DNA of 64,000 nucleotides from an uncultured bacterium (GCA_949283935.1 CASDUJ010000021.1:107627-171626); one strand, 5' to 3'; positions 9,830 through 63,916 are shown, counted from the first letter of the stretch. Program-made: numbers and translations. Notes: generated from the letters alone by a model not told the origin.

Positions 9830-9839
9830 AGTTTTTCTC

Positions 9840-12826: not shown

Positions 12827-12938
12827 ATTTCCCCCTTTATAATCTTTTTAATAATAAACTTCTATGTTTCAATTTGCATCATATAATTGCATTATTTTTG
12901 TGGTATTATTCTTTATGTATTTTTTGTAAGGATAAATT

Positions 12939-13283: not shown

Positions 13284-13289
13284 TGTCTA

Positions 13290-14777: not shown

Positions 14778-14778
14778 T

Positions 14779-41129: not shown

Positions 41130-41153
41130 TTTATAAAGTATAGGAGAATAGTG

Positions 41154-42299
41154 ATGAAAAAGTTTTTGGTACTTTTAGTAATACCTATTTTGGTTTTAAG
41201 TTTTGCGTTAAATTCTTTCGCTCAAGAATTTCCTGATGTAAACGAAAACCATTGGGCGTATAAAGAAATTGAAACTTTGGCAAAAGAAGGTGTGGTTGTT
41301 GGATATCCTGATGGTAGTTTCAAAGCAGATTCTTTAGTTGATCGTGCAGAATTTTCTACTATGGTTATAAAGGCATTGGCTCAAGAACATTCTCCCATTA
41401 AAACTGAAATCAAATTTGAAGATGTTCCCTATTCTCATTGGGCATATGATATGATTCAAAGAGCTGTTTATTTTGAGTTAATAGATGGTAACGCTAAAAA
41501 TTTTGATCCTGACGGATATGTTACAAAAGCCCATTCTGTCAGTGTTGCAATAAATGCATTAGAAACAAGGCCAATTACCCCAGCTAAAGCTATGGTAGTT
41601 TTGTCTCAAAATTATACTGATTTTAAAGATATTCCATCTTGGCTTGTAGTGCCTGCAGCAAAAGCAGAAATTCTTGGTATAACTGCTAAGATACCTGGAG
41701 AAGAAAAAGAATTTGCTGCAATGAAAAATGCTACCAGAGCTGAATTAGCTGTTTTAGTCTATAAAATGAGAGAAGAGGCTAAATTAAATCCGAATAAAAA
41801 ATTAGCAGAAGCTATGAAACCTAAAAAAGGAGAAGGCATTGTTATTCCTGAAGCTAAAGTTAAAGGACCTATGGGTATTATTCCTGAAGGAACTTTGCTG
41901 CCTATAGCTCTTGTTGATAAATTAAGTTCTCAAACAAATGAAGAAGGCGAAATTGTTCTTACTACTGCAAACAAGAACTTGATTTCTAAGGAAGGATATA
42001 TTTTATTATTAGAAGGAAGTAATATTGCCGGAGAAATTCAAGAAGTTCTAGTTGGTAGATATTTTGTCAGAAATGGTAAAGTTATTGTTGAAACTAATTT
42101 GATATCTACTCCAATTGGGCAAAAAACAAAATTTGATGGAATTATTGATACTACTCCTAAAAGGAATTGGATTGCCAGAATTTTACGGGCAATATTTAAA
42201 GGTGGTAAAATAAATCTTAAAGCAGGAGATGTAGTTTATGTTAAATTAGACCACCCCTTAAAGATTGATCTTTCTTGCGGATGGATATTTACAAAATGA
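41154..42299 (+). CDS. SLH-domain (three copies) envelope protein with C-terminal beta-rich module
   Basis: Signal peptide then FPDVNENHWAYKEIETLAKEGVVVGYPDGSFKAD...RAEF, FEDVPYSHWAY... and F.DIPSW..., which are S-layer homology repeats. Start set at the ATG at 41154, 7 nt after AGGAG. Confidence 0.8.
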   Translation: MKKFLVLLVIPILVLSFALNSFAQEFPDVNENHWAYKEIETLAKEGVVVGYPDGSFKADSLVDRAEFSTMVIKALAQEHSPIKTEIKFEDVPYSHWAYDMIQRAVYFELIDGNAKNFDPDGYVTKAHSVSVAINALETRPITPAKAMVVLSQNYTDFKDIPSWLVVPAAKAEILGITAKIPGEEKEFAAMKNATRAELAVLVYKMREEAKLNPNKKLAEAMKPKKGEGIVIPEAKVKGPMGIIPEGTLLPIALVDKLSSQTNEEGEIVLTTANKNLISKEGYILLLEGSNIAGEIQEVLVGRYFVRNGKVIVETNLISTPIGQKTKFDGIIDTTPKRNWIARILRAIFKGGKINLKAGDVVYVKLDHPLKIDLSCGWIFTK

Positions 42300-45706: not shown

Positions 45707-46429
45707 ATGTTTAGTGAATTGTACGAAATTAAATATCATGAAATTTATTTGGATGGCATTTTAAAACCTGCTGTTTTGCTTGAGTTTTTAGAAGATATTG
45801 CGGCTAAAAATGCTGATGATTTGCATTTTGGTTATAACGAAATTACTCAAAGTAACTATGGTTGGTTTTTGTTGAAATATGCTATGGATTTTTATCTTTA
45901 TCCACAAAATCTAAAAAAAATTCAAATCAAAACTGAGCCCCGTGGTGCTAATAAACTTTTTGCATATAGAGATTTTCACGTATATGATGAAAATGACAAT
46001 TGTCTTGCAAAAATTGCAAGTACATGGGGATTGGTCGATTTAAAAACAAAAGCCATGATAAATCCTTTAGAAGTGTTTAGAAATAAAATGTTTCCATTTG
46101 AAAAAAAAGAAGATGATTTGAAATATAACAAAATTCCATTGATTACAAATATATCTTCTGAAAAAAAATTTGAAATCAGATATAACGATATTGATGTAAA
46201 TGAACATGTTAACAATGCTACTTACCTTCTTTGGGCTTTTGAGACTTTACCTATTGAATTTATTAAAAATAAAAAACTTTCAAGATTAGATATTAATTAC
46301 AAAAAAGAAATTAAATATGGTGGGATGGTTAAATCAATTGTTCAAATTAATGCGAATAATTCAATCCATAATTTAAAGAATGATTTGAATAATGAAGATT
46401 TATGTATTATTTCAGCTGAATGGAAGTAA
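45707..46429 (+). CDS. acyl-ACP thioesterase (FatA/FatB-like family)
   Basis: 240 aa with a double-hotdog pattern: YEIKYHEIYLDGILKPAVLLEFLEDIA...GWFLLKY... and ...RYNDIDVNEHVNNATYLLWAFE. Confidence 0.75.
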   Translation: MFSELYEIKYHEIYLDGILKPAVLLEFLEDIAAKNADDLHFGYNEITQSNYGWFLLKYAMDFYLYPQNLKKIQIKTEPRGANKLFAYRDFHVYDENDNCLAKIASTWGLVDLKTKAMINPLEVFRNKMFPFEKKEDDLKYNKIPLITNISSEKKFEIRYNDIDVNEHVNNATYLLWAFETLPIEFIKNKKLSRLDINYKKEIKYGGMVKSIVQINANNSIHNLKNDLNNEDLCIISAEWK

Positions 46430-46513
46430 TTTACTTTGTATTTAGCTTTTAAAAATTGACTTGTAGATTTGATTAAGATAAAATTTATTGTGAGGGTAGT
46501 TGCGGATATTCTT

Positions 46514-46774
46514 ATGAGTTTGGAAGAAGAAATAAAAAAGCTTATTATTGAATCTTTAGAGTTGGAAGATATTTCTTTGGCAGATATAAATGATGATGAT
46601 TCTCTTTTTGGAGATGGATTAGGTTTGGATAGTATTGATGCTCTTGAACTTGGTATGGCTTTGAAAAAAAAATATAATATAGCTTTAAGTTCTAATAAAG
46701 AGGATAACAAGAAGTATTTTTATTCTGTAAAAACACTTGCAGATTTTGTTAGAGAAAGGGCAGGAGAGATTTAG
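46514..46774 (+). CDS. acyl carrier protein 1
   Basis: GLGLDSIDALELGMAL phosphopantetheine-attachment motif. The start is uncertain: ATG at 46514 was chosen for an ACP-typical N-terminus, and in-frame GTG 46490 or TTG 46469 are possible. Confidence 0.75.
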   Translation: MSLEEEIKKLIIESLELEDISLADINDDDSLFGDGLGLDSIDALELGMALKKKYNIALSSNKEDNKKYFYSVKTLADFVRERAGEI

Positions 46775-47028
46775 TGGTAGTAAGTTTAACTAAAGAAGAA
46801 ATATTTAATAAATTAACTAATATTTTAGTCGATGATTTTGAGATTGATAAAAATTTAATTTCAAAAGATGCTGATTTGTTTGAAAATCTTGAATTAGATA
46901 GTATTGATGCAGTTGATTTGGCTGTAAAATTGCAAAGTATTACTCAACAAAAAATTTCTCCTGAAAATTTTAAACAAATTAAAACTATTGCCGATGTAGT
47001 AGATGCAGTTTATGAACTTATGCAGTAA
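46774..47028 (+). CDS. acyl carrier protein 2
   Basis: LELDSIDAVDLAVKL attachment motif. 84 aa, with a GTG start overlapping the ACP1 stop by 1 nt. Confidence 0.75.
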   Translation: MVVSLTKEEIFNKLTNILVDDFEIDKNLISKDADLFENLELDSIDAVDLAVKLQSITQQKISPENFKQIKTIADVVDAVYELMQ

Positions 47029-47030
47029 TT

Positions 47031-47435
47031 ATGAATTTAAAAAAAATTTTCCCTTCTACTTTTACTTTACTAATAATTCTGTTGTTCCATATTTCGCGAA
47101 TTGAATTTTTGAAATTATATCCTATTTTAGCTAATTTATTTATTTTTTTGCTTTTCTTTTCCTCTTTATTTCGAAAAGAAACTATTATACAGAAAATAGC
47201 AAAACAATGTGAAAGAAAAGAATTGGATGAATTCACCAAAAATTATACAAGAAAACTGACTTATGTTTGGTCTTGTTTTTTGGCAGTTAATGTATTTTTT
47301 GCTTTCATTACAACTTTTATGTCTGACGAAATCTGGATGTTGTATAATGGATTTATTTCTTATGTTCTTATAGGAATATTTTTTTTAGTAGAATATATTG
47401 TAAGAATAATATTGCGGAAAAGGGATAAAGTATAA
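47031..47435 (+). CDS. small integral membrane protein (ApeG/COG4648-like position)
   Basis: 134 aa with three or four hydrophobic helices. It sits between the ACP pair and the adenylating enzyme, as in aryl-polyene-type clusters. Confidence 0.55.
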   Translation: MNLKKIFPSTFTLLIILLFHISRIEFLKLYPILANLFIFLLFFSSLFRKETIIQKIAKQCERKELDEFTKNYTRKLTYVWSCFLAVNVFFAFITTFMSDEIWMLYNGFISYVLIGIFFLVEYIVRIILRKRDKV

Positions 47436-47440
47436 TATAT

Positions 47441-49075
47441 ATGTGTATTTTTGATTTGTTTTTATCACCTGAAAATGATAATAATATTGCTTTAAGAACT
47501 TCTTTTGGTGATTTAACTTTAAAAGAAGTAAAACAATATATTTTAAAAAGAAAAGAAGAATTTGAAAACAAAAAAATAAAAAACGTCGTTTTACTTGGTG
47601 AAAATCATTTTGATTTTATAATAAATTTTTGGGCTGCAATTTTTGCGGAGAAAAATTTATATTTAATTACAGATTCAAAAAGGTTATCTTGTCTAACAAT
47701 AGAACATATTTTGCCTGAAAAAATTACCGAAAAAGCTGAGAAACTTTCTAAATTTAAAATTCCCAATTTATCTGAAGTTAATTTCTTTACATCTGGTTCT
47801 ACAGGAATTCCTAAACTAATAAAAAAAAATTGGGAAGTTATTTTAAAAGAAGGAATTGATACGTATGATGAATTTCAATCTTTTTGGCCCAAAAGTCCTT
47901 TGGTGTTTACTACTTCAACCCCTGCACACATGTTTGTTTTGACTTTTTACGTTTTGTTATCTTTTTTAAAAAATTTTATTATAGATACTCGAAAAATTGA
48001 ATTTCCTGAACAACTTGAAGAACGTCTAAGGGATAACAGTATATTGGTGACTTCTCCATCTTTTTTAGAAACCTTACAAAAATATAATGTAAAGTTAAAT
48101 ATTGACAAATTATTAATTTTTTCTGCTGGAAATAAACTTCCGAAATCCACACATGAATATTTTGAAAATCAGAAAATTAATATAATAGATATTTATGGTT
48201 CTACAGAAACAGGTAATATTGCTTTTAAGGCTGTATCTACAGACAAATATCTTACTAAGTTTCGTAAAGTCAATTTGTATTTGAAAGAAAATTCTTTGGT
48301 AGTAAATTCTCCATTTTTTCTTGAAAATGAAATTTGTTTGTCTGATCAAGCTGAAATTCTGGATGAAAATCATTTTATTTTGCGAGGCAGAATTGATAGA
48401 CTTGTAAAAATTACAGAAAAAAGAGTTTCATTAATTGAGTTGGAAGAAAATTTAGCAAAATGTAAATTTGTTAAAAATTCTTATTGCTTTGAATATTCTA
48501 AAAAGCTTTGTGTGGCTATTGTTTTGTCAGATTTAGGTATTAAATATTTTTTAGAGCACGGAATTTTGCAAATAAAAAAAGAATTAAAAAAATATCTTTT
48601 AAATTTTGTTGAAATTGTTCCTTCTCGTTGGAAATTTTTATACGAAATTCCCAAAACAGAAAGAGGAAAAGTTGATATTAACTATTTAAATGAAGTGTTT
48701 TCTACAAAACTTTCTTTACCTTTAGTAACGAAGGTTATTTATTCTGAAAAAATGACTGAAATTGAAATGTTATTTCCTAAAACTTGCAATTTTTTTGAAG
48801 GACATTTCAAAAATTTTCCTATTGTTCCAGGGGTTGTACAACTTTATTTTGCTCAAAAATATATAGAAACTTTTTGTAAAGTAGATATAAAAGTTTGGCA
48901 AATAAAAAGAATTAAATTTTCCAATGTAATTTTGCCAGATACGATTATTAAACTGAGATTGATAAATCAACATAATTTTGTGACTTTTGAATTTTTAAAT
49001 CAAAATGGTGAAATTTACTCTTCAGGAAATTTTACAAAATTCAAACAAAAAATAGAAACGGTGGATAAATTATGA
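47441..49075 (+). CDS. AMP-dependent ligase (acyl-ACP/CoA ligase type) fused to a FabA/FabZ-like hotdog dehydratase
   Basis: Adenylation motifs FFTSGSTGIPKLI, YGSTETG and PKTERGKVD, followed by a C-terminal about 110 aa with FFEGHFKNFPIVPGVVQL (dehydratase His and PGV motif). Confidence 0.75.
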   Translation: MCIFDLFLSPENDNNIALRTSFGDLTLKEVKQYILKRKEEFENKKIKNVVLLGENHFDFIINFWAAIFAEKNLYLITDSKRLSCLTIEHILPEKITEKAEKLSKFKIPNLSEVNFFTSGSTGIPKLIKKNWEVILKEGIDTYDEFQSFWPKSPLVFTTSTPAHMFVLTFYVLLSFLKNFIIDTRKIEFPEQLEERLRDNSILVTSPSFLETLQKYNVKLNIDKLLIFSAGNKLPKSTHEYFENQKINIIDIYGSTETGNIAFKAVSTDKYLTKFRKVNLYLKENSLVVNSPFFLENEICLSDQAEILDENHFILRGRIDRLVKITEKRVSLIELEENLAKCKFVKNSYCFEYSKKLCVAIVLSDLGIKYFLEHGILQIKKELKKYLLNFVEIVPSRWKFLYEIPKTERGKVDINYLNEVFSTKLSLPLVTKVIYSEKMTEIEMLFPKTCNFFEGHFKNFPIVPGVVQLYFAQKYIETFCKVDIKVWQIKRIKFSNVILPDTIIKLRLINQHNFVTFEFLNQNGEIYSSGNFTKFKQKIETVDKL

Positions 49076-49482
49076 ACATATCAGCAACAATAACAAAAGA
49101 TATTCCATTTTATGATTTGGACCCTATGCAAGTGGTTTGGCATGGAAATTACATTAAGTATATGGAAGATGCAAGATGTGCTTTATTGGAAAAGTTAAGC
49201 TATACATATGATGATATGAAAACCGAAAATATTGCTTATCCTGTAGCAAAATTGGAAATAAAGTACATAAAACCTTGCAGATTTGCTCAAAAAATAAATA
49301 TAAAGGCTATATTGAATGAATATGATCCTTGTTTGATAATTTCATATGAAATATATGATGCGAATACCAATGAAAAAATGCTGAAAGCAAAAACCATGCA
49401 GATATGTATAGACATAAAAACTTATACAACAATATACACTCCGCCCAAAAAACTTTTAGAAGGAGTAAAAAACTATGTATAA
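49072..49482 (+). CDS. 4HBT/YbgC-type acyl thioesterase
   Basis: 136 aa with PFYDLDPMQVVWHGNYIKYMEDAR (hotdog thioesterase catalytic Asp region). ATGA overlap with the upstream gene. Confidence 0.7.
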   Translation: MNISATITKDIPFYDLDPMQVVWHGNYIKYMEDARCALLEKLSYTYDDMKTENIAYPVAKLEIKYIKPCRFAQKINIKAILNEYDPCLIISYEIYDANTNEKMLKAKTMQICIDIKTYTTIYTPPKKLLEGVKNYV

Positions 49483-50002
49483 AATTATTTTTTTGATTCT
49501 TATTTTGTTTTTATTTTCACCTAAAGTTTTGGCAGATGTTTTTGATAAGCCATCTAATGTTTCTTCTGTTGTGAAATCTTTACCTGAAATTAAAAATGTG
49601 TCTTGTAAATTTACACAAGAAAAATTTATTGCTAATTCTGCAATGACTTTAAAATCAGGTGGTAATTTTGTTTTTGATAGAAACAATGGAGTAATTTTTG
49701 AAACCTTATACCCTGTTAAATCAACTGTATCTTATAGTTCTAATTCTAACAAACAAATAAACAGAGTAGTAAACTCTATAATAAATAAAAATTATTCAGA
49801 TTTAGAAAAAAATTTCAATATTTATTTTGAAAAAAATTCTCTATTATGGAGCTTAGGTCTTATTCCCAGACGTGAAACTGCTACGGCAGAGGTAATTGAT
49901 AAATTAAAAATATCAGGCAATAGTTATATCAAAACAATTGAAATTAAAACTATTGGAGGAGATATAACAACTCTCAATTTTACATGTTCAGAAAGGCAAT
50001 AA
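49475..50002 (+). CDS. LolA-like periplasmic lipid/lipoprotein carrier
   Basis: Signal peptide MYKIIFLILILFLFSPKVLA/DV, then CKFTQEK.....MTLKSGGNFVFDR..GVIFETLYP, the LolA-family pattern. 175 aa. Confidence 0.6.
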   Translation: MYKIIFLILILFLFSPKVLADVFDKPSNVSSVVKSLPEIKNVSCKFTQEKFIANSAMTLKSGGNFVFDRNNGVIFETLYPVKSTVSYSSNSNKQINRVVNSIINKNYSDLEKNFNIYFEKNSLLWSLGLIPRRETATAEVIDKLKISGNSYIKTIEIKTIGGDITTLNFTCSERQ

Positions 50003-52191
50003 TGGAAAAATTTAATATTTATAAGATTGTATTTGTATTTTGTTTATTCTCTTTAATTCTTGTTGGTTTTTTAAAACATCCAATTATTGAAACTAATATT
50101 TTAAAAGCAATTTTGCCTGATAACGAAAAAAGCTCTGTAATTTTTTATCTAGCCAATAAAAGTTCTGCAAAAATTAATTTTACTGTTGAAGCTTCTAGCA
50201 AAGATCAATTGTTAAAAACTACTTTTGCAATAAAAGATGAAATTAAAAATATGGATATGCCATTTGTTAGACCTAATTTTAAAGAAATTTTCGAATTGTA
50301 TAAAAATTACCCTATTAATTTTTTATCAAGATCATTGAGAAAAGAATTATCCAAAAATAATTTAGATAAATTCGTTATTGAAAAAAAAATTAGTTTATAT
50401 GATCCTTTATACTCTTCTGTTACAATTTTGCCTTTAGCTCAAGATCCTTTTATGTTATTAACTGATTATTTTGCTAATCTTTCTAATGAAAACAATTATT
50501 TGTTTTTTGACAAAGATGATAAATTTTATAGCGTTTTTTCATATTATTTTGACAAAAATTTATCATTATCTCCAGCAAATCTTAATAAACAAATTGAAAA
50601 ATTAATTCGTCTTCAAGATAAATACAATACCAATGAAATCAAAATATACATTTCAGGAGCTCCTGTTCATGCTTATTTTGCGAGTAAAACTTCTGCAAGA
50701 GATATTAATTTTGTTTCTTTGGTTTCTGTATGTTTTGTTTTTTCTTTAATTTTCTATTATTTTAAGTCCTTCAAGCCTATTGTTGCTGTTTCTCTTTCGA
50801 TTTTGTTTGCAATACTGGCTGGGTATGCTATGTCGGCTATTTTTTTTAGTTCCATTCATATATTGACATTTGTTTTTTCTACTTCATTAATTGGAATTTG
50901 CATAGATTATTCTTTGCATTTTTTTGTTGAATACAAAGAAAATGTTTCTCCAACTAAAATTATACATAAAATTTCCAAAAGTCTCACTGTAAGCTTATTT
51001 ACTACTATTTGTGCTTTCGGGATTTTGTTTTTTTCAAAAATCTCTTTGCTTCAACAAATTGCTGTTTTTACTATTACAGGGCTTGTTAGTGTTTACTTAA
51101 TTGTTATTTTATTTTATCCTGTGTTTTTTAAAGGTGCAGTTAACCTAAATGAAGTTACAAAATTTAATTTTTCTATTAGTAAAAACTTTTCTATTTTAAT
51201 ATTTGCATTAGCTGCGTTTATTATGCTAATTGGTTTTCCGATGTTTAAAATAAACAATGATATCACTCTAATGTATAAACCAAACGAAAAATTATTAGTT
51301 GCGGAAAATTTATATAATGTTTTAATGCAAAAAGATACAAAATTTTTACTTGTAAAAAGTTCACGACAAGAAAATTTTCAAAAACACATAGAGTTAGAAG
51401 AATCAATAATTGATAGTATTTTGGAACTTTATCCTGATGCAAAAATTGAAGCTTTTTCTAAATATGTTCCATCTGTTAAAAGACAGACAGAGAATGTAGA
51501 ATTAATATCTAATTTATACAAAAAGAAGCTTTTTGAGTATGCGGATTTTCTAGACATTTCTCAAAAAAAATTGTTGCTGGAAAATATTAAAAATGTCAGT
51601 TTTTTTGTATATAAACCTGAGGAATATAAATTTTTAAATGATTTTTTTGTGAAAAAAAACACGTCTTTAGTTATTCTTGAAAATGTTCCTGATATTTCTA
51701 TTGTAACTAACAATCCCAATATTATTTCTATAAATCTCAAAAAGGATTTATCCGGAATTATAAGTGAGTGCAGTCAAAAATGCTTGAGGCTTATATTGCC
51801 AGCTTTTTTGGTAATGTTATTAGGTTTGACGTTTGTGTTTAATATAAAAAATGCATTGATTCTTGTATTGCCATCTTGTATTGCAAGTTGTCTCACATTA
51901 ATTATTCCTACTTTTTTTCATCAGCAAATAAATTTTTTCCATTTATTATCTGTGTTTTTAATTATTGGTTTTGGAATTGATTATTCTATTTTTAGGTTCA
52001 ATGGCTCGCGTAATGCGGGAGATGCAGTATTTTTGTCAGCTGTTACGACTATTTTTTCTTTTTCTTTGTTAGCTTTTACAGAATTTAAATTGGTCAGTTC
52101 CATTGGATTTGCTTTGGCAGTGGGATTGTTTTTTTCTTATTTGTTTAGTTTTATTGTTATTAGGAAAAATCAAAATGACAAATTGGTATAA
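50002..52191 (+). CDS. MMPL/RND-superfamily exporter
   Basis: Two blocks of about six TM helices, each preceded by a soluble loop. GICIDYSLHF and GFGIDYSIF are MMPL-type motifs. Start set at ATG 50002 (TAATG overlap with the LolA-like gene). Confidence 0.75.
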   Translation: MEKFNIYKIVFVFCLFSLILVGFLKHPIIETNILKAILPDNEKSSVIFYLANKSSAKINFTVEASSKDQLLKTTFAIKDEIKNMDMPFVRPNFKEIFELYKNYPINFLSRSLRKELSKNNLDKFVIEKKISLYDPLYSSVTILPLAQDPFMLLTDYFANLSNENNYLFFDKDDKFYSVFSYYFDKNLSLSPANLNKQIEKLIRLQDKYNTNEIKIYISGAPVHAYFASKTSARDINFVSLVSVCFVFSLIFYYFKSFKPIVAVSLSILFAILAGYAMSAIFFSSIHILTFVFSTSLIGICIDYSLHFFVEYKENVSPTKIIHKISKSLTVSLFTTICAFGILFFSKISLLQQIAVFTITGLVSVYLIVILFYPVFFKGAVNLNEVTKFNFSISKNFSILIFALAAFIMLIGFPMFKINNDITLMYKPNEKLLVAENLYNVLMQKDTKFLLVKSSRQENFQKHIELEESIIDSILELYPDAKIEAFSKYVPSVKRQTENVELISNLYKKKLFEYADFLDISQKKLLLENIKNVSFFVYKPEEYKFLNDFFVKKNTSLVILENVPDISIVTNNPNIISINLKKDLSGIISECSQKCLRLILPAFLVMLLGLTFVFNIKNALILVLPSCIASCLTLIIPTFFHQQINFFHLLSVFLIIGFGIDYSIFRFNGSRNAGDAVFLSAVTTIFSFSLLAFTEFKLVSSIGFALAVGLFFSYLFSFIVIRKNQNDKLV

Positions 52192-53107
52192 TATAAAAGA
52201 ACGTTCGGCTGGCGAATTACGTCTATATATTTTATGGATTATTTACAAATTTTTAGGAAAATTTTGTTTGGATTTTGTCGTTTTTTTTGTTGCTTTTATT
52301 TCCTTTATTTTTGCTAGTGAAATTAGGATGTACTCTGAAAAATATCTTCTTGTTTTATCTGCGTTTACTAAAGCAAAAATAAAACCTTCTTTTTTTAATT
52401 TATTTAAACATTATTTGTCTTACGCTTATTCACTTTCAGATAAGATTGAAATATTTTCTGGTAAATTTAAGTGTGAAAATATTTATTTTGAATCTGATTT
52501 AGATGCTAAAAAACTTTTTAATGATTTTGAACAAAATAAAGGAGTATTTTTTATTTGTAATCATATTGGCAATATTGATGTTATGCGCGCATTTTTGTTT
52601 TCTAGTTTTAAATATTCTAATATGAAAGTTAATGTATTTTTGCAACAAAATCAAACGAAAATTTTTAATGAATTTTTAAAAAAAATTTCTGCTGATACTC
52701 CTATATCAGTTTATCCCGTTGAAAATATTGGTATTGATACGGCTATTGAAATAAAAGAAAAACTTTCAAAAGGTGAAATTGCTTTTATGGCAGGTGATAG
52801 AATTTCGGCACAAAACTCCAATGCTGTATTTGTTGCTGATTTTTTGCAAAAAAAAGTAAAATTTCCGCTGGGAACATTTAAGTTTGCTTTATTGACTGAA
52901 GTACCCATATATTTTGTTTCTTGTCTTAAAACTCGTAAAAATTTTTATAAAATCATTTTAAATAAACCTGCCATTACCTATAAAAATAAAAAGAAAGATT
53001 TATTAATATTACAAAATGATTTTGTGAAATTTTTAGAAAATATTACTGTACAATATCCTTTTCAATTTTATCATTTTTATGATCTGTTTAATGAGGATTA
53101 TATATAG
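52175..53107 (+). CDS. LPLAT-superfamily acyltransferase with N-terminal TM segments
   Basis: FICNHIGNIDV is the HX4D acyltransferase motif, and MAGDR is block III-like. Start set at ATG 52175 (MTNWYNIK), overlapping the MMPL gene end. Confidence 0.65.
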   Translation: MTNWYNIKERSAGELRLYILWIIYKFLGKFCLDFVVFFVAFISFIFASEIRMYSEKYLLVLSAFTKAKIKPSFFNLFKHYLSYAYSLSDKIEIFSGKFKCENIYFESDLDAKKLFNDFEQNKGVFFICNHIGNIDVMRAFLFSSFKYSNMKVNVFLQQNQTKIFNEFLKKISADTPISVYPVENIGIDTAIEIKEKLSKGEIAFMAGDRISAQNSNAVFVADFLQKKVKFPLGTFKFALLTEVPIYFVSCLKTRKNFYKIILNKPAITYKNKKKDLLILQNDFVKFLENITVQYPFQFYHFYDLFNEDYI

Positions 53108-53591
53108 GTTTTCCTGATTTAACATAAGCAAGCAGTATTTGCTTGCATTGCTCTACTTCTATATTACCAGTTACTGAAATTCCTTTTTGTGCAAAAATAT
53201 TTATCCAATTTGGTTTGTAACCTTCATCAAAACTTGTTATCTTTTCTACTTCTTTAGAAGGGAGACCAAAGTATACAGATTTTATCCCTGACCACATAAT
53301 TGCTCCCACACACATAATACAAGGTTCAGCTGTTATACATAGAGAAAAATTGTAAGCTGATAAATCATAGGTATTAAATTTTTTTTGAACTATTCTAATC
53401 ACATTAGTCTCTGCATGATTCAATGCACAGTTGTCATTAACGACACTATTGTGGGCTAATTCAATAATTTCTCCTCTTTGGCCGCAAATTGCTGCAGAAA
53501 ACGGTCCGTAACCTTGTTTTTGGGCCAATAGATTTTTGGCGCATAATTCTTTTATGATTTTGTGGGCATAGTTAATATAATTGTTCTGCAT
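53088..53591 (-). CDS. CMP/dCMP-type zinc deaminase (nucleoside/guanine/tRNA-adenosine deaminase family)
   Basis: HAETNVI and TAEPCIMCVGAI (H-A-E ... PC-x2-C zinc site). Start moved to MQNNYIN (ATG at 53591). Confidence 0.8.
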   Translation of the reverse strand: MQNNYINYAHKIIKELCAKNLLAQKQGYGPFSAAICGQRGEIIELAHNSVVNDNCALNHAETNVIRIVQKKFNTYDLSAYNFSLCITAEPCIMCVGAIMWSGIKSVYFGLPSKEVEKITSFDEGYKPNWINIFAQKGISVTGNIEVEQCKQILLAYVKSGKPIYNPH

Positions 53592-53667
53592 TAGCAATCC
53601 TTCAAATCCTTCCAATATTATACCATATTTTCTTGATTACTTCTCATTTATGTTGTATCTTTTTGTT

Positions 53668-55026
53668 ATGAGAAAAATATTTAGTTTGGTTTTAATAGTA
53701 CTTTTTGCCTTAAGTAATTCAATAAATGCTGCTGATTATTTTACCATGGGAAAAACTGCTTTTGCCCAAAAAAATTACAGACAAGCAAATATTTATTTTG
53801 TGCAGGCTTTGACCCAAGACCCCAATAATGCAAATTGCAGATATTTCTACGCACAAACTTTAACTTATCTAAAAAATTACGAACAAGCTAGAAAAGAATA
53901 TGGTTATGTGATACAGCTTGCGCCTTCTTCTGTTGCCGCCGATTATTCTCAGCAAGCTATCATGTATTTGGATCAAATGTATTTTTCTACTAAACCTAAA
54001 CAAAATTCATCAGATTCTGTTGCTTCTAGCGATAACTATCTAAAAAAAGCTTTAACTTCTAATGGGGAACTTGTTACGTGGGATTTGGATAAAATGCCAT
54101 TAAAAATTTATCTTGATAATTCTTATAGAGTTCAAAATTTTTATATTGATGCGGCTAAAAGTGCTTTAAGTAGTTGGCAACAGGCAAGCGATGGGCTTAT
54201 CAGTTTTGCATATACAGTTGATCCAAATTTAGCTGATGTTAAAATTGTCTTTAAAGGAGTTGCGCAGAAAACTGAAAATCAAATTCTTGGGCTTACTCAA
54301 CATACAAGTAAAAATGGATATATAGACAAAGTACAAGTTACTTTGTATACTTTAGGACCTAATTACAAAATGCTTACTGCGGCAGATGTGTACAATGTTG
54401 CATTGCACGAATTTGGGCATATGCTTGGAATTTGGGGGCATAGTGATTCGAAAAATGACGTAATGTATTCTCTTTATGATGTGCATGGGCAATCTAATAG
54501 AATAAATCTTTCAAATAGTGACAAAAATACAATAAAAGCTTTGTATGAAATTGATAAAAATCCATATTCTACTACTTCAAATTCTATTAATAAAGTATTA
54601 GGAAACAAAGTTGATAGAATGAGTGCAAAGCTTCAGCAAAATTTAGATTATGTAAAATCAGTTCCTGGCAATCCTATAGGTTACATAAATGTTGCTAATA
54701 CATACAAAGCCATGAATAAAGAATATGAGGCAATTTCTTATTATAAAAAAGCTTTGACAATTGATAGGAACAATAAGGATGCTAATTTGGCTTTGGCTAC
54801 TATATATTTTAATCGTAATGATTTAAAAAATGCAGAAATATACTATAAAAATTTGATAAAAATTGAACCTAAAAATCCACATTCATATTGTAATTTAATA
54901 AATCTTTACATTCGTAATAACAAACTTTCGAATGCAAATGCTACACTTTCAAGTTTGCTGTATAGAAATCCTGATGCTAAAAATCAAGATTGCATAAAAT
55001 CAATTATAAAAACATTAGGAAGGTAA
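53668..55026 (+). CDS. secreted TPR-repeat protein with central matrixin-like (metzincin) zinc protease domain
   Basis: Signal peptide MRKIFSLVLIVLFALSNSINA, TPR units at both ends (e.g. NANCRYFYAQTL..., ANTYKAMNKEYEAISYYKKALTID) and a central VALHEFGHMLGIWGHS followed by DVMY (Met-turn-like). Confidence 0.7.
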   Translation: MRKIFSLVLIVLFALSNSINAADYFTMGKTAFAQKNYRQANIYFVQALTQDPNNANCRYFYAQTLTYLKNYEQARKEYGYVIQLAPSSVAADYSQQAIMYLDQMYFSTKPKQNSSDSVASSDNYLKKALTSNGELVTWDLDKMPLKIYLDNSYRVQNFYIDAAKSALSSWQQASDGLISFAYTVDPNLADVKIVFKGVAQKTENQILGLTQHTSKNGYIDKVQVTLYTLGPNYKMLTAADVYNVALHEFGHMLGIWGHSDSKNDVMYSLYDVHGQSNRINLSNSDKNTIKALYEIDKNPYSTTSNSINKVLGNKVDRMSAKLQQNLDYVKSVPGNPIGYINVANTYKAMNKEYEAISYYKKALTIDRNNKDANLALATIYFNRNDLKNAEIYYKNLIKIEPKNPHSYCNLINLYIRNNKLSNANATLSSLLYRNPDAKNQDCIKSIIKTLGR

Positions 55027-55172
55027 TTGCGAAAAAATCTAAAGTTTCCTTGATTGTTTTTTTTGCATGTAAGATAAAAAAATGCTAATATCTTCTAAAT
55101 TGTTTTTAGTTTTCTGGTTGTATTTAATTGAATTGTTACTATAATTTGCTTTTGCTTGTAAAGGAGTAATTT

Positions 55173-55316
55173 ATGTTAGCTGTTAAAACTAAGCCTATGA
55201 TGAGAACAATAAAAAAAGATAAAATTATTTGTTATCTTTTAAATGGAAAAAGAGATTACGAAAAAGAAAAAAAATTTGAAAAACTTTTAAACGATGTATT
55301 AAAAATGATTGAATAA
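55173..55316 (+). CDS. small Lys-rich protein (47 aa), not in the supplied ORF track
   Basis: AAGGAG lies 7 nt upstream of the ATG. The ORF reads MLAVKTKPMMRTIKKDKIICYLLNGKRDYEKEKKFEKLLNDVLKMIE and is followed within 5 nt by a strong hairpin terminator. Confidence 0.45.
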   Translation: MLAVKTKPMMRTIKKDKIICYLLNGKRDYEKEKKFEKLLNDVLKMIE

Positions 55317-55320
55317 ATAA

Positions 55321-55348
55321 AAAGCCGAAACAGTTGTGTTTCGGCTTT
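55321..55348. terminator. bidirectional rho-independent terminator
   Basis: aaagccgaaac / agttgt / gtttcggcttt (11-bp stem, 6-nt loop) with T-runs on both strands. It lies between the small ORF (+) and the skp-like gene (-). Confidence 0.7.
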
Positions 55349-55366
55349 TTATTGGTTTTGATATGA

Positions 55367-55828
55367 TTATTTAACTGCTTTTGTTATTTCATTTGTTATG
55401 TCTTCCCCTCCATAGAGAACTATACCTTTGGCTAAAACAATATCAAAGCCTTTAGCTTTTGCTTCCTTTTGAATTACAGTTGATATATCTTTGTCTATTT
55501 CTGCTAATTTTTTTGCGTAATTTTTATCAATTGCTTCTTTTTTGTCATTTAATTGTTTGTTGTACTTGGTTTCTAGTGATTTTCTTTTGTTTACGTCTGT
55601 TTCTTTATCTAAATTAGTTTTTGCTGTCACAACAAATTTTGTCAAATCTTCTATTTGTTTTTTATGTTCTGCTTTTAAATTATTAACAGCCTTAGAGCTT
55701 CCAACAACTTTTTGTACATCTACTGTTGCAATTTTGTAATTTGGCAAAGCGTCAGATACTGCAAAATTGTTTATGGCTAAACCTATTGTTAACGCACATA
55801 TTCCTGTCAAAATTAATTTTCCATTCAT
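55367..55828 (-). CDS. OmpH/Skp-family periplasmic chaperone
   Basis: Signal peptide, then KIATVDVQKVV...S.....L.....K...L, a long charged coiled arm, and a C-terminal G.DIVL......LYGG. About 150 aa. Confidence 0.75.
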   Translation of the reverse strand: MNGKLILTGICALTIGLAINNFAVSDALPNYKIATVDVQKVVGSSKAVNNLKAEHKKQIEDLTKFVVTAKTNLDKETDVNKRKSLETKYNKQLNDKKEAIDKNYAKKLAEIDKDISTVIQKEAKAKGFDIVLAKGIVLYGGEDITNEITKAVK

Positions 55829-55911
55829 AATTCTCTCCTCCTTATTTGCTTAAAAAGTGCAGGTAACTTCTTATCTGCACTTATAATAACATATTTATTT
55901 AAAATATAAAA

Positions 55912-56064
55912 TTATTTCAATGCTACTAACAAAGGGGCAAGTCCAAGTTCCTGTTGAACTTCTTTTGCTTTGTCCATGGCAAGAATTCTTCTCTTTTTGG
56001 CTGCTTTTAATATGAAACTTACTGAATTTGAATTTGTACTGTTATTTGAATAGTTTTTTATCAT
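55912..56064 (-). CDS. hypothetical small protein (50 aa)
   Basis: Start set at the ATG at 56064 after AGAGGA. Asn/Ser-rich then a basic helix. No motif recognised, so the gene itself is uncertain. Confidence 0.35.
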   Translation of the reverse strand: MIKNYSNNSTNSNSVSFILKAAKKRRILAMDKAKEVQQELGLAPLLVALK

Positions 56065-56159
56065 AATATTTCCTCTTGAATTTCTTATCCAATTTATCGA
56101 CATATTTGATAATAAACTTTAGTTTTTTAAGTAAAATGTTACAATAAATTTACAAAATT

Positions 56160-57371
56160 TTATGTGACAATTTTTTTTGTTTCGCTTATAAATTCTTCTT
56201 CATCTGCAGGCAAGTATTTTTCAGGTATTTTTTTTACAGGTGTTAAACCAAATGATATAAATTTATCAACTAAACTTGTTAAACCTCCTTTACCTGATAA
56301 AGGAGACATTACCTCCGCAAAATAGTCTTCTATTGCTGTAAAACGATTCTTTAAAATTTCAATCTTTTCAATAAGTATTCTGCACTTTGAATACATGCTT
56401 TCACCAAGTTTAAGAATTTGTGCTATGTTTTCTGCTTGATTTTTTTGCGCCCAACAATAATTTATTATTCTTAATGTTGCTAAAAGTGTAGAAGGACCTA
56501 CAATTATTACATTTCTTGAGTTAGCATGTTCCAAAAGTTTTGTGTTACATAAAATATAACTTAAAATTCCTTCTATAGGAATAAACATAAGTTTGAAATC
56601 AGGTGTGTTAAGACCATCTAGATTATTGTATTTGTTTCCTAAAGAATCAGACATTTTTTCTACTTGGTTGTAAAAATTTTTTAGATATTTTTGTTTTTCT
56701 TCTTCATTTTCACAATTGGCAAATTCTTTAAAATCGTTCAATGCTAATTTTGAATCTATTATGATGTGTTTGTTATCGGGAAAGAAAACAATTGCATCAG
56801 GTCTTACTAAAGGAGCAGTAGGATTATCTAAATCTCTATAGCCTGTTTGTGTTATGTAATTACCTTCTTCTCCAAAATCATTTTTATTTTTGAGCCCTGA
56901 AGCTTTTAAAATATTTTCTAAAATAATTTCTCCAAATTCTCCACGTGATTGAGCATTTTCCTTTAAAGCTTTGGTAAGTTCATTAGCTGTGTTTTTTATA
57001 ATTTTGTTTTCATTTAATAGTGTTTCTATTTGTGTTTTGATTGTTACGGTATTATTGGCCCCTTCTTTTGAGAAGTCTTCCAATCTTTTTCTAAATGCTT
57101 CAATATTTTGGTTGAGTGGCTCTAAAATTTTGGAATTTTCTTTGGCTAAATCTGATTGCTTTTCTATAATAGCTTTATTCGCAATATTTGTAAATTGCTC
57201 TTTTACTATTTCTTCTATATTTTGATATGATTTTATTATTTCTTCTTTGTTCTTAAGTTGTTCTTTTGTTTTTACTAATTCTAATTTTGATTTTTCCGAA
57301 GATAATTTACCCAACAAAAAACCTATTACAAAACCTAAAATTATTGCAAAAAGTAAATAAATATATTCCAT
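56160..57371 (-). CDS. rmuC: DNA recombination protein RmuC
   Basis: N-terminal TM, a long coiled coil, then the RmuC nuclease-like core (RGEFGEIILENIL...PDAIVFFPDNKHIIIDSK...MFIPIEG). Confidence 0.85.
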   Translation of the reverse strand: MEYIYLLFAIILGFVIGFLLGKLSSEKSKLELVKTKEQLKNKEEIIKSYQNIEEIVKEQFTNIANKAIIEKQSDLAKENSKILEPLNQNIEAFRKRLEDFSKEGANNTVTIKTQIETLLNENKIIKNTANELTKALKENAQSRGEFGEIILENILKASGLKNKNDFGEEGNYITQTGYRDLDNPTAPLVRPDAIVFFPDNKHIIIDSKLALNDFKEFANCENEEEKQKYLKNFYNQVEKMSDSLGNKYNNLDGLNTPDFKLMFIPIEGILSYILCNTKLLEHANSRNVIIVGPSTLLATLRIINYCWAQKNQAENIAQILKLGESMYSKCRILIEKIEILKNRFTAIEDYFAEVMSPLSGKGGLTSLVDKFISFGLTPVKKIPEKYLPADEEEFISETKKIVT

Positions 57372-57380
57372 AAAATTCTC

Positions 57381-57917
57381 CTAAATAAATATTATATTAC
57401 TAATAGTTACAGCCGCTAAAATTCCTGCTATATCAGCTATTAGTCCTGCCCATAAAGCATGGCGGAATTTTGTTATGCCTACGGAACCAAAATATACAGT
57501 TAATACGTAAAATGTAGTTTCACTACAACCTACCATAACTGCTGCCATTTTGGCTATAAAACTGTTTGCTCCATGCTCAGAAGCAATTTCTGCCATAATA
57601 CCTAAAGCACCACTGCCTGAAAGTGGACGAATTATCGCCAGAGGTAGTAATTCTGCAGGCATACCTATTTTGTTAAGAATAGGAGCCAACAATGCTGTTA
57701 GTATATCTATGGCTCCAGATGCTCGAAACATTCCAATAGCTACAAGAATTGCAACAAGATAAGGAATTATCATTACTCCTACCTTGAAACCTTCTTTCGC
57801 TCCCGATACAAATGTTTCGTATATTGAAACTTTTTTAAATAATGCATAAATAAGAATTACTAATAAAATAACAGGTATTGTGTAGAGAGAAATACAATTT
57901 AAAAATTCTTTAATCAT
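57381..57917 (-). CDS. spmB: nucleoside-recognition-domain membrane protein (SpmB-like)
   Basis: 178-aa polytopic protein, ...IRPLSGSGALG..., paired with an upstream SpmA-like gene with overlapping ends. Confidence 0.7.
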   Translation of the reverse strand: MIKEFLNCISLYTIPVILLVILIYALFKKVSIYETFVSGAKEGFKVGVMIIPYLVAILVAIGMFRASGAIDILTALLAPILNKIGMPAELLPLAIIRPLSGSGALGIMAEIASEHGANSFIAKMAAVMVGCSETTFYVLTVYFGSVGITKFRHALWAGLIADIAGILAAVTISNIIFI

Positions 57918-58512
57918 TTTCCTCTCCTACAGACTTTACGGGGAAAAAATTTTGTAAAATTTTTACTGCTATTATTGCAATAATAGTTCCGAATAAAGTT
58001 ATTAATATTGTAGGTCCAACTATTTCACTTGGATTTTTTGAACCTGTTGCAACTAATATAGCAATCACAGATGCAGGTACAATTTGAAAACCTGCTGTAT
58101 TTATAGCGAGAAAAGTTGCCATGGAATTTGTTGCAGTATCTTTTTGTTTATTTAATGTTTGCATTTCTTGCATAGCTTTAATTCCAATAGGTGTTGCTGC
58201 ATTTGTTACTCCTAGTGCATTAGCAGAAATATTCATCGCAATATTTCCTAATGCAGAATGTCCTTTTGGAATTTCAGGAAAAAGCCAGTTCGTTATTGGT
58301 TCTACAAGTTTTGCTATAAATTTTATAATTCCTGATTTTTCTGCCAGTTTTACTATTCCAAGCCAAAATGCCATAATTCCTATTAAAGAAATTGATATTT
58401 CTACTCCTAATTTTGCATTGTCTATAATTGCCTGCGTAACTTCTTGTATTCTTCCGTTTATAATCGCTACAATTATCGAAACTACTATTAAAAATACCCA
58501 AATGTATCCCAT
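57910..58512 (-). CDS. spmA: nucleoside-recognition-domain membrane protein (SpmA-like)
   Basis: About 200-aa polytopic protein, ...NISANALGVTNAATPIGIKAM... Start moved to MGYIWVF (ATG at 58512 after GGTGAGG). Confidence 0.7.
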   Translation of the reverse strand: MGYIWVFLIVVSIIVAIINGRIQEVTQAIIDNAKLGVEISISLIGIMAFWLGIVKLAEKSGIIKFIAKLVEPITNWLFPEIPKGHSALGNIAMNISANALGVTNAATPIGIKAMQEMQTLNKQKDTATNSMATFLAINTAGFQIVPASVIAILVATGSKNPSEIVGPTILITLFGTIIAIIAVKILQNFFPVKSVGEEND

Positions 58513-58551
58513 ATAAACCTCACCCAGTTTCACTTATTATATACAAAACAT

Positions 58552-59535
58552 TTAAACTGTAGTATCCATGTTCTCGATTTGTTCAGGAGTAAGTTCTTCC
58601 ATTCCATCCGGAGTAATAAGATTTGATGTATCTTTGTAATTTGCCAAATATATAAATTTGTATAGCATAAATGGATTAAATGAACGACTTCCTTCAGAAA
58701 GCATAATTTTGATTGCTTCGTGTGATGGAATAGCTTTTTTGTAAACTCTTTGAGAAACTAGTGCATCGTATACATCGCAAATAGCTGCTACTTGAGCATA
58801 TAAATGAATTTCTTTCCCTTTTAAGCCATGAGGATAACCAAGACCTCCATATTTTTCTTGATGTTCAAGCGCAACTCTAGCTATATCTTCTGGTAATCTT
58901 AGTTCTTTTTTTATAATATCGTAACCATAAATTGTGTGGTTTTTCATTTCATTAAATTCTTCAGGCGTAAGTTTATCAGGCTTGTTTAAAATTGCTTTTG
59001 ATACTCTCATTTTGCCAATGTCGTGTAACAATCCACCGAGAGCCAATTTTTTCAAATCCTCTTCGCTAAAACCTAACATAATTCCTAAAGCAGAACACAT
59101 AGACGAAACGTTGACTGTGTGTGAATAAGTATAATGATCAAATACTCTAAGCTGACCTATACATTCTGCTTTGTCAAGTTTGTCTGTAACTTCATCTAAT
59201 ATGATATCTCGTGTAGCTTCGCAAATGTTTATATCTGGTTTTTTTCCATCTAGTGCATCGTAAAGAATCTTTTTTGTGTTACCTACTAAATTTTCTGTAA
59301 CATCATCCGGTATAATAGATTTTATTTCAGGTTCGCCTACTAATTCATAATCATCGTCAATTAATTTAGTTTTCTTTTTTTCAGGTTGTATAAATAACTG
59401 CATATAGTTCATTTGCATAACCAAACTAGGATTAAGCTGTGTACCTACAGGGTACAAAAGCTCTCCGTTGATATTATACAAATCAACATCTAATATAGTT
59501 TTCCCTACAAGTTCAAGTGCTGATATTCGCTTCAT
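58552..59535 (-). CDS. HD-GYP domain protein with uncharacterised N-terminal domain
   Basis: GGLLHDIGKM and EHQEKYGGLGYPHGLKG motifs. The N-terminal about 130 aa has no recognised motif. Confidence 0.8.
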   Translation of the reverse strand: MKRISALELVGKTILDVDLYNINGELLYPVGTQLNPSLVMQMNYMQLFIQPEKKKTKLIDDDYELVGEPEIKSIIPDDVTENLVGNTKKILYDALDGKKPDINICEATRDIILDEVTDKLDKAECIGQLRVFDHYTYSHTVNVSSMCSALGIMLGFSEEDLKKLALGGLLHDIGKMRVSKAILNKPDKLTPEEFNEMKNHTIYGYDIIKKELRLPEDIARVALEHQEKYGGLGYPHGLKGKEIHLYAQVAAICDVYDALVSQRVYKKAIPSHEAIKIMLSEGSRSFNPFMLYKFIYLANYKDTSNLITPDGMEELTPEQIENMDTTV

Positions 59536-59594
59536 GATTTTTTTCTTCTCTAACTATTACTATCATACACCGTATTTAATTTATAAACAACAAT

Positions 59595-60521
59595 TTATAA
59601 GAATTTTGCGCCATTTGTTTCTACATTTACTGTTTTTAATTCTACTTTTACGCTATATTCTTCCCAAGTATCTTTTATGATATTTTTAATTTCATCTGTA
59701 TTTGAACCTTGCGTAATTACTACTATTCCAGGACCTGCACCACTCAATGCTGTACCTAAAACATTTTCTGTGTGACGTAAATTTTTCATTATTTCATCTA
59801 ATCCTGGTACTAATTTAGTTCTGTATGGTTGATGAAGTTTATCTTGCATTCCTAATTTGAAAAGTTTTGCATCTTGTTTGTTTATTGCCTCAACCATCAT
59901 TGCCGTTCTTCTTGCGTTAAATGCAGCATCTTTCAAACTAATCATTTCAGGTAAAACTGAACGAGAAATAGATGTGGGTAGCTCGAAATCAGGTACGCAC
60001 ATTGTAATTTTCCAATCTTCAGGCCATGGTAATTTTCTGGTTGTAACACTTCCATCTATTTCTACAGAAGAAAGTACAAAACCTCCAAGCATCGCTGCTG
60101 CAATATTGTCCGGATGTCCTTCTATTTCTGTAGCAATAGAGATTAACGTAGCTTCGTCTGCTGGTGAACCTAACAATTCATTGGTAGCCATTAAACCTCC
60201 AACTATTACAGAAGCTGAACTACCAAAGCCTCTTGCTAATGGAATGTCAGAATATATATTTATTCGCATTGAATTTGGAGTCTGCCCAATGTATGTAAAC
60301 AATAAATCAACTGCTTTGTACACAATATTGCTTTCATCTGTAGGTATATGAAATTCACTTATGTCAAATTCATCAGAAAAAACATTTATTTGTATTCCTT
60401 CATTTGGATCAACTAGTTCTTCTATTGTAACTGTATTGTGTATTGGTAACGCAAGACCAAAACAATCAAATCCAGGCCCCAAATTTGCGGAAGTTGCTGG
60501 TACTTTTACACTAACTTTCAC
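59595..60521 (-). CDS. thrB: homoserine kinase
   Basis: VKVPATSANLGPGFDCFGLAL and the GHMP motif PLARGFGSSASVIVGG. Confidence 0.9.
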   Translation of the reverse strand: MKVSVKVPATSANLGPGFDCFGLALPIHNTVTIEELVDPNEGIQINVFSDEFDISEFHIPTDESNIVYKAVDLLFTYIGQTPNSMRINIYSDIPLARGFGSSASVIVGGLMATNELLGSPADEATLISIATEIEGHPDNIAAAMLGGFVLSSVEIDGSVTTRKLPWPEDWKITMCVPDFELPTSISRSVLPEMISLKDAAFNARRTAMMVEAINKQDAKLFKLGMQDKLHQPYRTKLVPGLDEIMKNLRHTENVLGTALSGAGPGIVVITQGSNTDEIKNIIKDTWEEYSVKVELKTVNVETNGAKFL

Positions 60522-63178: not shown

Positions 63179-63265
63179 CAGTAAACCTCTCATTTGTAAG
63201 TCAAATTTTCCTTCATTCTACTATACAAATAAATTATATAAAAATCACCCTGTTGCGGGATTTTA

Positions 63266-63916
63266 TTAACTTTTACATTCCCATTCACTAAAAAATTTTT
63301 TAAGAAATTTTTTCATAAAAATTTGTCTATTATGTGCAAGCTCTATCCCTTTTTTTGTGTTCATTTGTTCTGATAGAAGTAGTAATTTTTCGTAAAAATG
63401 GTTAATTGATGTGCTTTTTGAATTTTTATATTCTTCAAAACTATTATGAAGTTTTGGTTTAATTTCGGGATTGTATATTTCTTGTTTTACGTATGCTCCA
63501 TATGCAAATGTTCTTGCAATTCCTATTGCTCCAATTGCATCTAATCTATCTGCATCTTGTACTATTTTTCCTTCTATAGTTTTCATAGGAGTTTTTACTT
63601 TTGCGCCTTTGAATGATATTGTTTTTATTATTTCTGTAATTTTTTTTGTAATTTTATCTTCAATTTTAATGCTTTTTAAAAATTCTTCTGCTATTTCACA
63701 TCCTATATTTTCATTTCCATTGTTAAATTTCCAATCCGATATATCATGCAAAAGTGCAGAAAGTTCCACTATTAATCTGTTAGCAGATTGTTCTGTTCTT
63801 AAGATTAATTTAGAATTTTGCCAGACTCTGTATGCATGCCACCAGTCATGACCAGTTATTTCGCCTGATAATTTATTTTTTACAAATTTTATTGTTTCTT
63901 CTATATATTTTTCCAT
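63266..63916 (-). CDS. HD-domain phosphohydrolase
   Basis: HDWWHAYRV, LLHDISDWK and DADRLDAIG are the H...HD...D metal ligands of the HD superfamily. Confidence 0.75.
   Translation of the reverse strand: MEKYIEETIKFVKNKLSGEITGHDWWHAYRVWQNSKLILRTEQSANRLIVELSALLHDISDWKFNNGNENIGCEIAEEFLKSIKIEDKITKKITEIIKTISFKGAKVKTPMKTIEGKIVQDADRLDAIGAIGIARTFAYGAYVKQEIYNPEIKPKLHNSFEEYKNSKSTSINHFYEKLLLLSEQMNTKKGIELAHNRQIFMKKFLKKFFSEWECKS

Follow-up and report, generated by a model that had tools for sequence, protein, structure and literature searches.

Aryl polyene homologs in the window

The closest described relatives of the locus reported here are the aryl polyene (APE) clusters of Escherichia coli CFT073, Xenorhabdus doucetiae and Acinetobacter baumannii. 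In the described pathway, ApeH puts 4-hydroxybenzoic acid (4-HBA) on an acyl carrier protein (ACP) with no CoA intermediate, ApeD and ApeJ act in attachment to the lipid anchor, ApeK in proofreading or release of the product, and ApeL, ApeM and ApeN in carrying it to the outer membrane, with export through a LolA-like carrier and an MMPL protein (PMC8253772). In the ApeH-ApeI fusion of A. baumannii, the ApeI part forms with ApeP a heterodimeric dehydratase that has a single active site (PMC8041823). We analysed a 64-kb stretch of DNA from an uncultured bacterium of the gut order Gastranaerophilales (CASDUJ010000021.1:107627-171626, assembly GCA_949283935.1; “the window” below), in which homologs of the loading, attachment and export genes of such clusters occupy positions 46514-53107 of the + strand. 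We consider this locus to be, probably, one part of a split APE cluster of the Gastranaerophilales type, namely a loading, attachment and export operon whose ketosynthase (KS) module lies elsewhere in the same genome.

Nine open reading frames (ORFs), all on the + strand, were found at 45707-53107, as the first-pass annotation of this DNA had reported. Its neighbours are nrdD-nrdG, a divergent pair, and a deaminase gene of convergent orientation. All nine genes had been described as abutting or overlapping, which is correct for the eight Ape genes (46514-53107), while a gap of 84 bp separates them from the first gene, that of a Fat-type acyl-ACP thioesterase (45707-46429, +; 240 aa; PF01643 and PF20791 above cutoff). 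The gene calls of an independent assembly placed the start of the first ACP gene at the ATG at 46514, not at the TTG at 46469, that of the MMPL gene at 50002 and that of the last gene at 52175.

Proteins of the window were compared with those of the E. coli CFT073 ape cluster (locus L093, 33727-48748, minus strand). ACP1 (46514-46774, +; 86 aa; serine motif LDSIDALEL) was homologous to ApeE (56% identity, E 1e-27) and ACP2 (46774-47028, +; 84 aa; LDSIDAVDL) to ApeF (52%, E 1e-23), both as reciprocal best matches. They scored above cutoff for NF006617/PRK09184 and NF003757/PRK05350, respectively, and ACP1 was 75% identical to its counterpart in a complete cluster, L001. The next gene encodes a small polytopic membrane protein (47031-47435, +; 134 aa) that matched the C-terminal part of ApeG (31%, E 3e-16). 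It had no Pfam family and a weak IspZ-like match, and was 54% identical to its L001 ortholog.

The fourth Ape gene (47441-49075, +; 544 aa) encodes an ApeH-ApeI fusion. Its adenylating, ACP-loading part spans approximately residues 26-420 (25% identity to ApeH, E 1e-23) and its ApeI-type hotdog approximately residues 440-535 (nucleotides 48758-49045; 27% identity to ApeI, E 4e-9). The protein matched PF00501 and was borderline for PF22818 (score 28.2, cutoff 28.5). In the ligase-hotdog alignment (A1) it retained each of the 57 invariant columns, among them the TSGSTG motif, K125 and the catalytic His455 of the hotdog, and on this homology and these motifs the protein is assigned to ApeH/ApeI. 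At first pass, either the fused hotdog or the thioesterase had been proposed to edit the acid; the fusion is no editing novelty, an adenylating enzyme with a C-terminal ApeI-type hotdog being already known from the A. baumannii cluster (PMC8041823).

A 4HBT_2/YbgC-type thioesterase follows (49072-49482, +; 136 aa; PF13279 and TIGR00051 above cutoff) and was similar to ApeK (37%, E 3e-33). The ApeL-like protein (49475-50002, +; 175 aa; 22%, E 3e-8) is a periplasmic LolA-fold carrier with weak LolA and LolA2_flexi matches and an N-terminal signal peptide, its hydrophobic N-terminus reading MYKIIFLILILFLFSPKVLA. The ApeM-like exporter (50002-52191, +; 729 aa as called) is of the MMPL/RND type (HpnN-like; PF03176 above cutoff). 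Its ORF is open from 49984, and its match to ApeM (23%, E 2e-32) covers residues 90-771.

Profile searches upheld the first-pass family assignments for the Fat-type thioesterase, the ACPs, the ligase-hotdog, the 4HBT thioesterase, the LolA-like protein and the MMPL protein. The last gene (52175-53107, +; 310 aa; HX4D motif NHIGNID), in which an LPLAT had been seen as the attachment enzyme, was assigned differently. Its product matched residues 262-550 of ApeJ (23%, E 1e-27), which is the acyltransferase half and not the GT2 half, and was 46-48% identical to the L001 and L004 orthologs, with 32 of 32 conserved sites kept. The protein itself had no Pfam match and weak NCBIfam matches to PIM acyltransferase and LPLAT. 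Because of the match to ApeJ, and because the orthologs in L004 and L010 pass the PF03279 (Lip_A_acyltrans) cutoff, the gene is classified by similarity as encoding an ApeJ-like, probably LpxL-type enzyme rather than a PlsC/ApeD-type LPLAT. In the profile search this product gave no match to PF01553 (PlsC-type LPLAT), and ApeD queries matched nothing in the window.

The APE-like content and the apeE-to-apeM gene order noted at first pass were borne out by this one-to-one comparison. Homologs of ApeE, F, G, H, I, K, L and M occur in order, together with the acyltransferase half of ApeJ, and this collinear match to nine E. coli Ape domains is, judged from the alignments, far beyond chance. Unlike the clusters of E. 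coli and X. doucetiae, the window locus lacks ApeA, B, C, D, N, O, P, Q and R and the GT2 half of ApeJ (complete clusters of the Gastranaerophilales were not searched for the GT2 half). Its acyltransferase gene stands after ApeM, whereas theirs stands between ApeI and ApeK, and its ApeH and ApeI are fused. The A. baumannii system has ApeP, the KS/chain length factor (CLF) pair and the ketoreductase (KR) within one cluster, whereas none of these is near the window genes.

Genes for KS, CLF, KR, ApeP, ApeD, methyltransferase and DUF3261 were not found in the 64-kb window with the proteins of relatives and E. coli ApeA-R as queries; E. coli ApeA, B, C, D, N, O, P, Q and R had no match anywhere in it. 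In tblastn, the Gastranaerophilales ketosynthases KSr (the ApeR-type KS) and KSo, their ApeC, and E. coli ApeC, O and R gave no window match at E<=1e-2. The same ENA contig (L182), followed with the HD protein at 63266-63916, extended the sequence 9.9 kb past the window end. This extension holds genes for UvrC, DUF192, GidB, TPR proteins, Dus and an aminotransferase, and the same KS and ApeC queries had no match there at E<=1e-3. KR (ApeQ), the dehydratase partner ApeP, ApeD and methyltransferase queries matched nothing in the window or in L182. The local absence of KS/CLF, KR, second dehydratase, methyltransferase and DUF3261 genes was as first described, and they had not been cut off by the window edge.

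Detached export modules and orphan KS modules

The ligase-hotdog protein had 792 homologs. Those with names belonged to Candidatus Gastranaerophilales or Gastranaerophilus, and the nearest were 49-50% identical, with P0002 and P0004 as the closest relatives (49%), both on contigs that end short of the region upstream of ACP1. A scan of GTDB species genomes gave 80 loci, nearly all from Gastranaerophilales or Melainabacteria. None was more than 43% identical to the window ligase, and the window species is therefore not among the GTDB representatives scanned. Literature searches gave nothing specific on APE clusters in Melainabacteria or Gastranaerophilales.

The typical locus of this order consists of a KSr-KR-ApeP-KSo operon divergent from ApeC-ApeD-ACP1-ACP2-ApeG-ApeH/I-ApeK-ApeL-ApeM, an optional O-methyltransferase and an LpxL-like gene. 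With a KS and a KR that share 53% identity with ApeR and ApeQ of E. coli, it is classed as a true APE family cluster. Complete clusters (such as L001, L004, L008 and L010) share with the window the eight genes, their order, the fusion and the LpxL-like terminal gene, at 39-75% identity. They differ from it in the divergent operon, in the ApeC-ApeD pair directly upstream of ACP1, where the window has nrdD and the Fat-type thioesterase gene instead, and often in an O-methyltransferase. In L001 (6029-7549) KSo and ApeP are fused in one ORF of 506 aa, and in L107 (6071-8428) in one of 785 aa, which is longer than KSo plus ApeP. The window also encodes a ferredoxin-nitroreductase fusion (24960-25781, -), 20 kb from the module. 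In L008, L011 and L012 the gene that immediately follows the complete cluster has 55% identity to it, and L020, L065 and L089 have homologs no more than 10 kb from their clusters. The fusion may belong to the pathway as an occasional accessory.

A KS module was present within 10 kb of the export module in 59 of the 80 GTDB loci and absent in 10, and the contigs of the remaining 11 were too short for classification. A module was counted as detached if a KS module was lacking over an examined stretch of at least 8 kb upstream and 4 kb downstream, so that detached export modules made up 10 of 69 classifiable species (14%, about one in seven). In this comparison across relatives, of the kind proposed by the first-pass annotation, the detached module recurs, and 59 of the 69 species have the KS module close by. 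Like the window locus, the detached modules (L013, L034, L036, L066, L070, L075, L074, L081, L082 and L088) stand alone amid housekeeping genes. Their flanking genes differ from those of the window, and none adjoins a Fat-type thioesterase gene. Some lack the ACP pair, L036 lacks the MMPL and acyltransferase genes, and several retain a methyltransferase. The genes upstream are unrelated housekeeping genes (glucanotransferase, DUF2400, UvrC, ShlB, hexapeptide transferase and others), and a common replacement enzyme was rejected since these neighbours are unrelated to each other. KS and KR matches in L070 were likewise rejected as APE genes, as the KS was only 33% identical to KSr and is probably a housekeeping FabF.

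By MMPL identity, the detached modules form clades (L066/L070/L075, 74-89%; L074/L081, 70%; L082/L064, 95%), so the detached state is old and survives speciation with its genes intact. In three of them (L074, L081 and L088) ACP genes are lacking within 10 kb, and since an ACP-loading enzyme needs an ACP, these modules must rely on genes in trans. These export modules (about 9570-16600 each) begin at ApeG, and their ligases (433-455 aa) have shorter N-termini, matching query residues 115-531 only. Two loci (L036:9038-12573 and L032:6695-10122) keep ACP1 through the LolA-like gene with no MMPL or LpxL-like gene after it, and may represent a truncated or decaying form of the module. ApeD and ACP1 were separated by 29-107 bp in most loci, but nine had a gap of 0.2-1.7 kb and one a gap of 6.7 kb. 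The KS block was inverted in L017, L018 and L090, and in L106 and L130 the export half was on the opposite side of the KS block. The junction of ApeD and ACP1 is a rearrangement hot spot.

In a reciprocal search, metagenome contigs were scanned with an alignment of KSr, and 17 low-GC loci had enough flanking sequence. An export module was nearby in 12 of these, and four (L109, L111, L121 and L124) were orphan KS modules. L107, the remaining and partial case, carries ApeC, ApeD and two ACPs beside its KS module and lacks ApeG and ApeH, making it the exact complement of the three detached modules that lack ACPs. L112 and L185 were further orphan examples. The orphan KS modules were flanked by genes for a tRNA synthetase, AnmK, FliD and similar housekeeping proteins. 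Orphan KS modules made up about 24-29% of these loci (4-5 of 17) and were thus no rarer than orphan export modules (14%). This is what a pathway distributed over two loci predicts, and what frequent KS-less pathways do not.

One of the orphan KS modules, L121 (30% GC), can be placed in the lineage of the window organism, because its ApeC|KSo-ApeP-KR-KSr genes are followed by a tRNA synthetase gene 84% identical to the copy in L094/L095, two loci sharing housekeeping genes with the window at 70-94% identity. Around its KS, five proteins (P0241-P0245) form a tight clade, with 85-91% mutual identity and 76% for the next best. The same five-gene unit, with ApeC divergent from KSo-ApeP-KR-KSr, was found at another genomic site in L185 (sample ERZ1029115), also as an orphan and without ApeD or ACPs; L121:7072-11224 and L185:848-4926 are 83-89% identical. 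In loci that hold both a ligase and a KS gene, ligases 46-64% identical are accompanied by KS proteins of roughly 75-90% identity. By these identities, the L121-type KS clade and the window ligase clade (P0001-P0004) could come from the same group of organisms. With detached export modules and orphan KS modules both in existence, L121 and L185 of the window lineage among them, a second locus with the missing genes, named at first pass as what would make this an ordinary APE pathway, is likely to exist.

In a self-sufficient pathway without KS, the ligase would charge the dedicated ACPs with a free aromatic or fatty acid, the LpxL-type acyltransferase would transfer this acyl group unextended to an envelope lipid, and the LolA-like and MMPL proteins would export the product, with no polyene being made. 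Such a pathway would account for the lack of KS, KR and ApeP genes within 66 kb, for the eight intact genes with their conserved sites, and for the stability of the detached state through speciation in several clades. Acyl-ACP is the donor for LpxL-family enzymes, which would suit it as well. Nevertheless, the conserved sites are the same as in KS-adjacent modules. Among them is the His of the ApeI hotdog, a residue that in its known role depends on ApeP and on beta-hydroxyacyl-ACP substrates (PMC8041823). Orphan KS modules are also no rarer than orphan export modules (4-5 of 17 against 10 of 69), and the three detached modules without ACP genes cannot be self-sufficient at all. We regard a KS-less pathway in the window organism as unlikely, and it is a little more doubtful still that a free-standing ApeE-F-G-H/I-K-L-M-J' system, attaching an aryl or fatty acid to an envelope glycolipid without polyketide-type elongation, recurs in this organism and at least 10 other Gastranaerophilales species. 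The undescribed pathway suggested at first pass found no support, given the frequency of detached export modules and the similar proportion of orphan KS modules.

The module could also be a non-functional relic, left after an APE cluster lost its KS half. The KS half is indeed absent locally, and the APE system looks accessory in this lineage: the close relatives L094, L095 and L100 have no module at the corresponding site, and the ligase homologs found included no close ligase from the JGI samples of these three loci. Constraint was assessed for the eight proteins at alignment columns at least 95% conserved among orthologs of non-detached loci. The window proteins kept 284 of the 292 conserved positions, which is within the range of other loci, and detached loci scored alike. 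This retention, the eight intact and tightly coupled reading frames, the identical protein sequence in independent samples and the persistence of intact detached modules across species-level divergence all speak against a relic, which we consider very unlikely. Neither decay of the module nor altered constraint was apparent in these alignments.

Several observations weigh against a cluster split over two loci. No KS module was found for the window organism, the KS-free span being 45.7 kb upstream and 20.8 kb downstream of the module. Orphan KS and orphan export modules were not seen within one genome among the loci examined, and the sole traceable protein of the L121-type KS clade, P0244, came from another sample (ERZ1029115). 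ApeD is missing from the window module and also from the L121-type KS unit. Finally, the “attached” comparison set of the constraint test includes 11 loci of undetermined state.

The Fat-type thioesterase and the history of the site

The sequence from nrdD through the thioesterase gene to ACP1 was 99.85-99.88% identical in two independent ENA assemblies. Since the two agree, a misassembly was ruled out and the junction is real. The Ape module has a lower GC content (25-26% at 46001-52000) than its flanks (~28-30%) and the whole window (~29%), which may reflect either its membrane-protein content or a foreign origin. A horizontal origin was given no weight on GC (25% against ~29% in the flanks), as the module is rich in membrane proteins.

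Close relatives of the window organism have thioesterase homologs of 62-65% identity. In L094 and L095 a methyltransferase gene and the thioesterase gene are followed by a convergent RmuC-Gate-Gate-HD-GHMP kinase-M16 peptidase block. In L100 the order is RimP, thioesterase, a 123-aa protein and a TPR-M10 protein, then the same RmuC block. The block genes of the three loci are 65-94% identical to the window copies at 53581-63193. The window has this same frame, with the eight Ape genes and the deaminase gene between the thioesterase gene and the TPR-M10 gene. Because relatives keep the thioesterase gene next to the same RmuC block without any Ape genes, it was most likely the older resident, beside which the Ape module was inserted, and was not recruited into the cluster.

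The first-pass annotation had made this thioesterase a step of the pathway. It would free a fatty acid from the housekeeping fatty acid synthase (FAS), and the ligase would reload this acid on the ACPs before the product was edited, attached and exported. In favour of this, the thioesterase gene is on the same strand as the module, and there is no terminator before ACP1. Against it, the 84-bp gap contains a promoter-like site (TTGACT-17-TAAAAT, 46456-46484, +; 10 of 12 matches). This site is a weak hint, since such sites were no more numerous in the region than expected from shuffled sequence, the DNA being AT-rich. A Fat-type thioesterase gene was found within 10 kb of the module in only two of about 80 loci, 3.5 kb downstream in L027 and 1 kb downstream in L071, which is close to the ~0.8 expected by chance for a single-copy gene. 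Both of these loci carry ApeC and ApeD upstream, and L071 has the full KS module, so that the thioesterase is no substitute for elongation genes. None of the 10 other detached modules has the thioesterase, whereas it keeps its place by the RmuC block in relatives without the module. A pathway fed by the thioesterase is in our view highly improbable, the gene being a conserved syntenic neighbour that is not co-inherited with the module.

An ApeG-like paralog following the thioesterase gene would fit such a pathway. The 123-aa membrane protein of L100 (2462-2833) and L101 (2620-2991), encoded 5 nt after the thioesterase gene, has no Pfam or NCBIfam family and is 31% identical (E 3e-16) to the ApeG-like protein of the window. 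It could be a thioesterase-linked paralog or a relic of a former module. The window also encodes a 649-aa FadD-like long-chain fatty acid-CoA ligase (31150-33099, -), which suggests, together with the Fat-type thioesterase, ordinary turnover of free fatty acids independent of the Ape module.

Proposed pathway and implications

For an APE operon physically separated from its chain-elongation module (ApeC/ApeO/ApeP/ApeQ/ApeR), the following steps can be proposed from characterised homologs. The ApeH domain would adenylate an aromatic acid (4-hydroxybenzoate-like) and load it directly onto the ApeE-type ACP, and a KS/CLF-KR module acting in trans would add malonyl units. The ApeI hotdog fused to ApeH would form a dehydratase with a single active site together with ApeP. 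ApeK would proofread or release the product, the ApeJ-like, LpxL-type acyltransferase would join it to an envelope lipid, and ApeG, the LolA-like ApeL and the MMPL protein ApeM would carry it to the outer membrane. The upstream Fat-type thioesterase would be an unrelated housekeeping neighbour. An SLH-domain protein (41151-42299, +) and an OmpH/Skp chaperone (55367-55828, -) are encoded on either side of the region. Both suit a diderm envelope, a requirement for exporting lipids to an outer membrane. At the start of the window, a 466-aa protein (399-1799, +) with the Peptidase_S74 (endosialidase chaperone) domain known from phage tail fibres possibly marks a remnant of a prophage.

APE-type clusters are widespread in Gastranaerophilales, an uncultured gut cyanobacterial order. 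If the cluster is split, the biology is ordinary and the pathway probably an ordinary one distributed over two loci. The antiSMASH arylpolyene rule keys on APE ketosynthases; in about one in seven Gastranaerophilales species it would then call the KS half only and miss the loading and export half. Should the module work without KS, it would represent a new route of envelope-lipid decoration. The existence of two portable units, one of ApeC/O/P/Q/R and one of ApeE-M with the ApeJ-like gene, supports the view that attachment and export constitute an autonomous functional module, and this view is useful for the question of which lipid anchors aryl polyenes.

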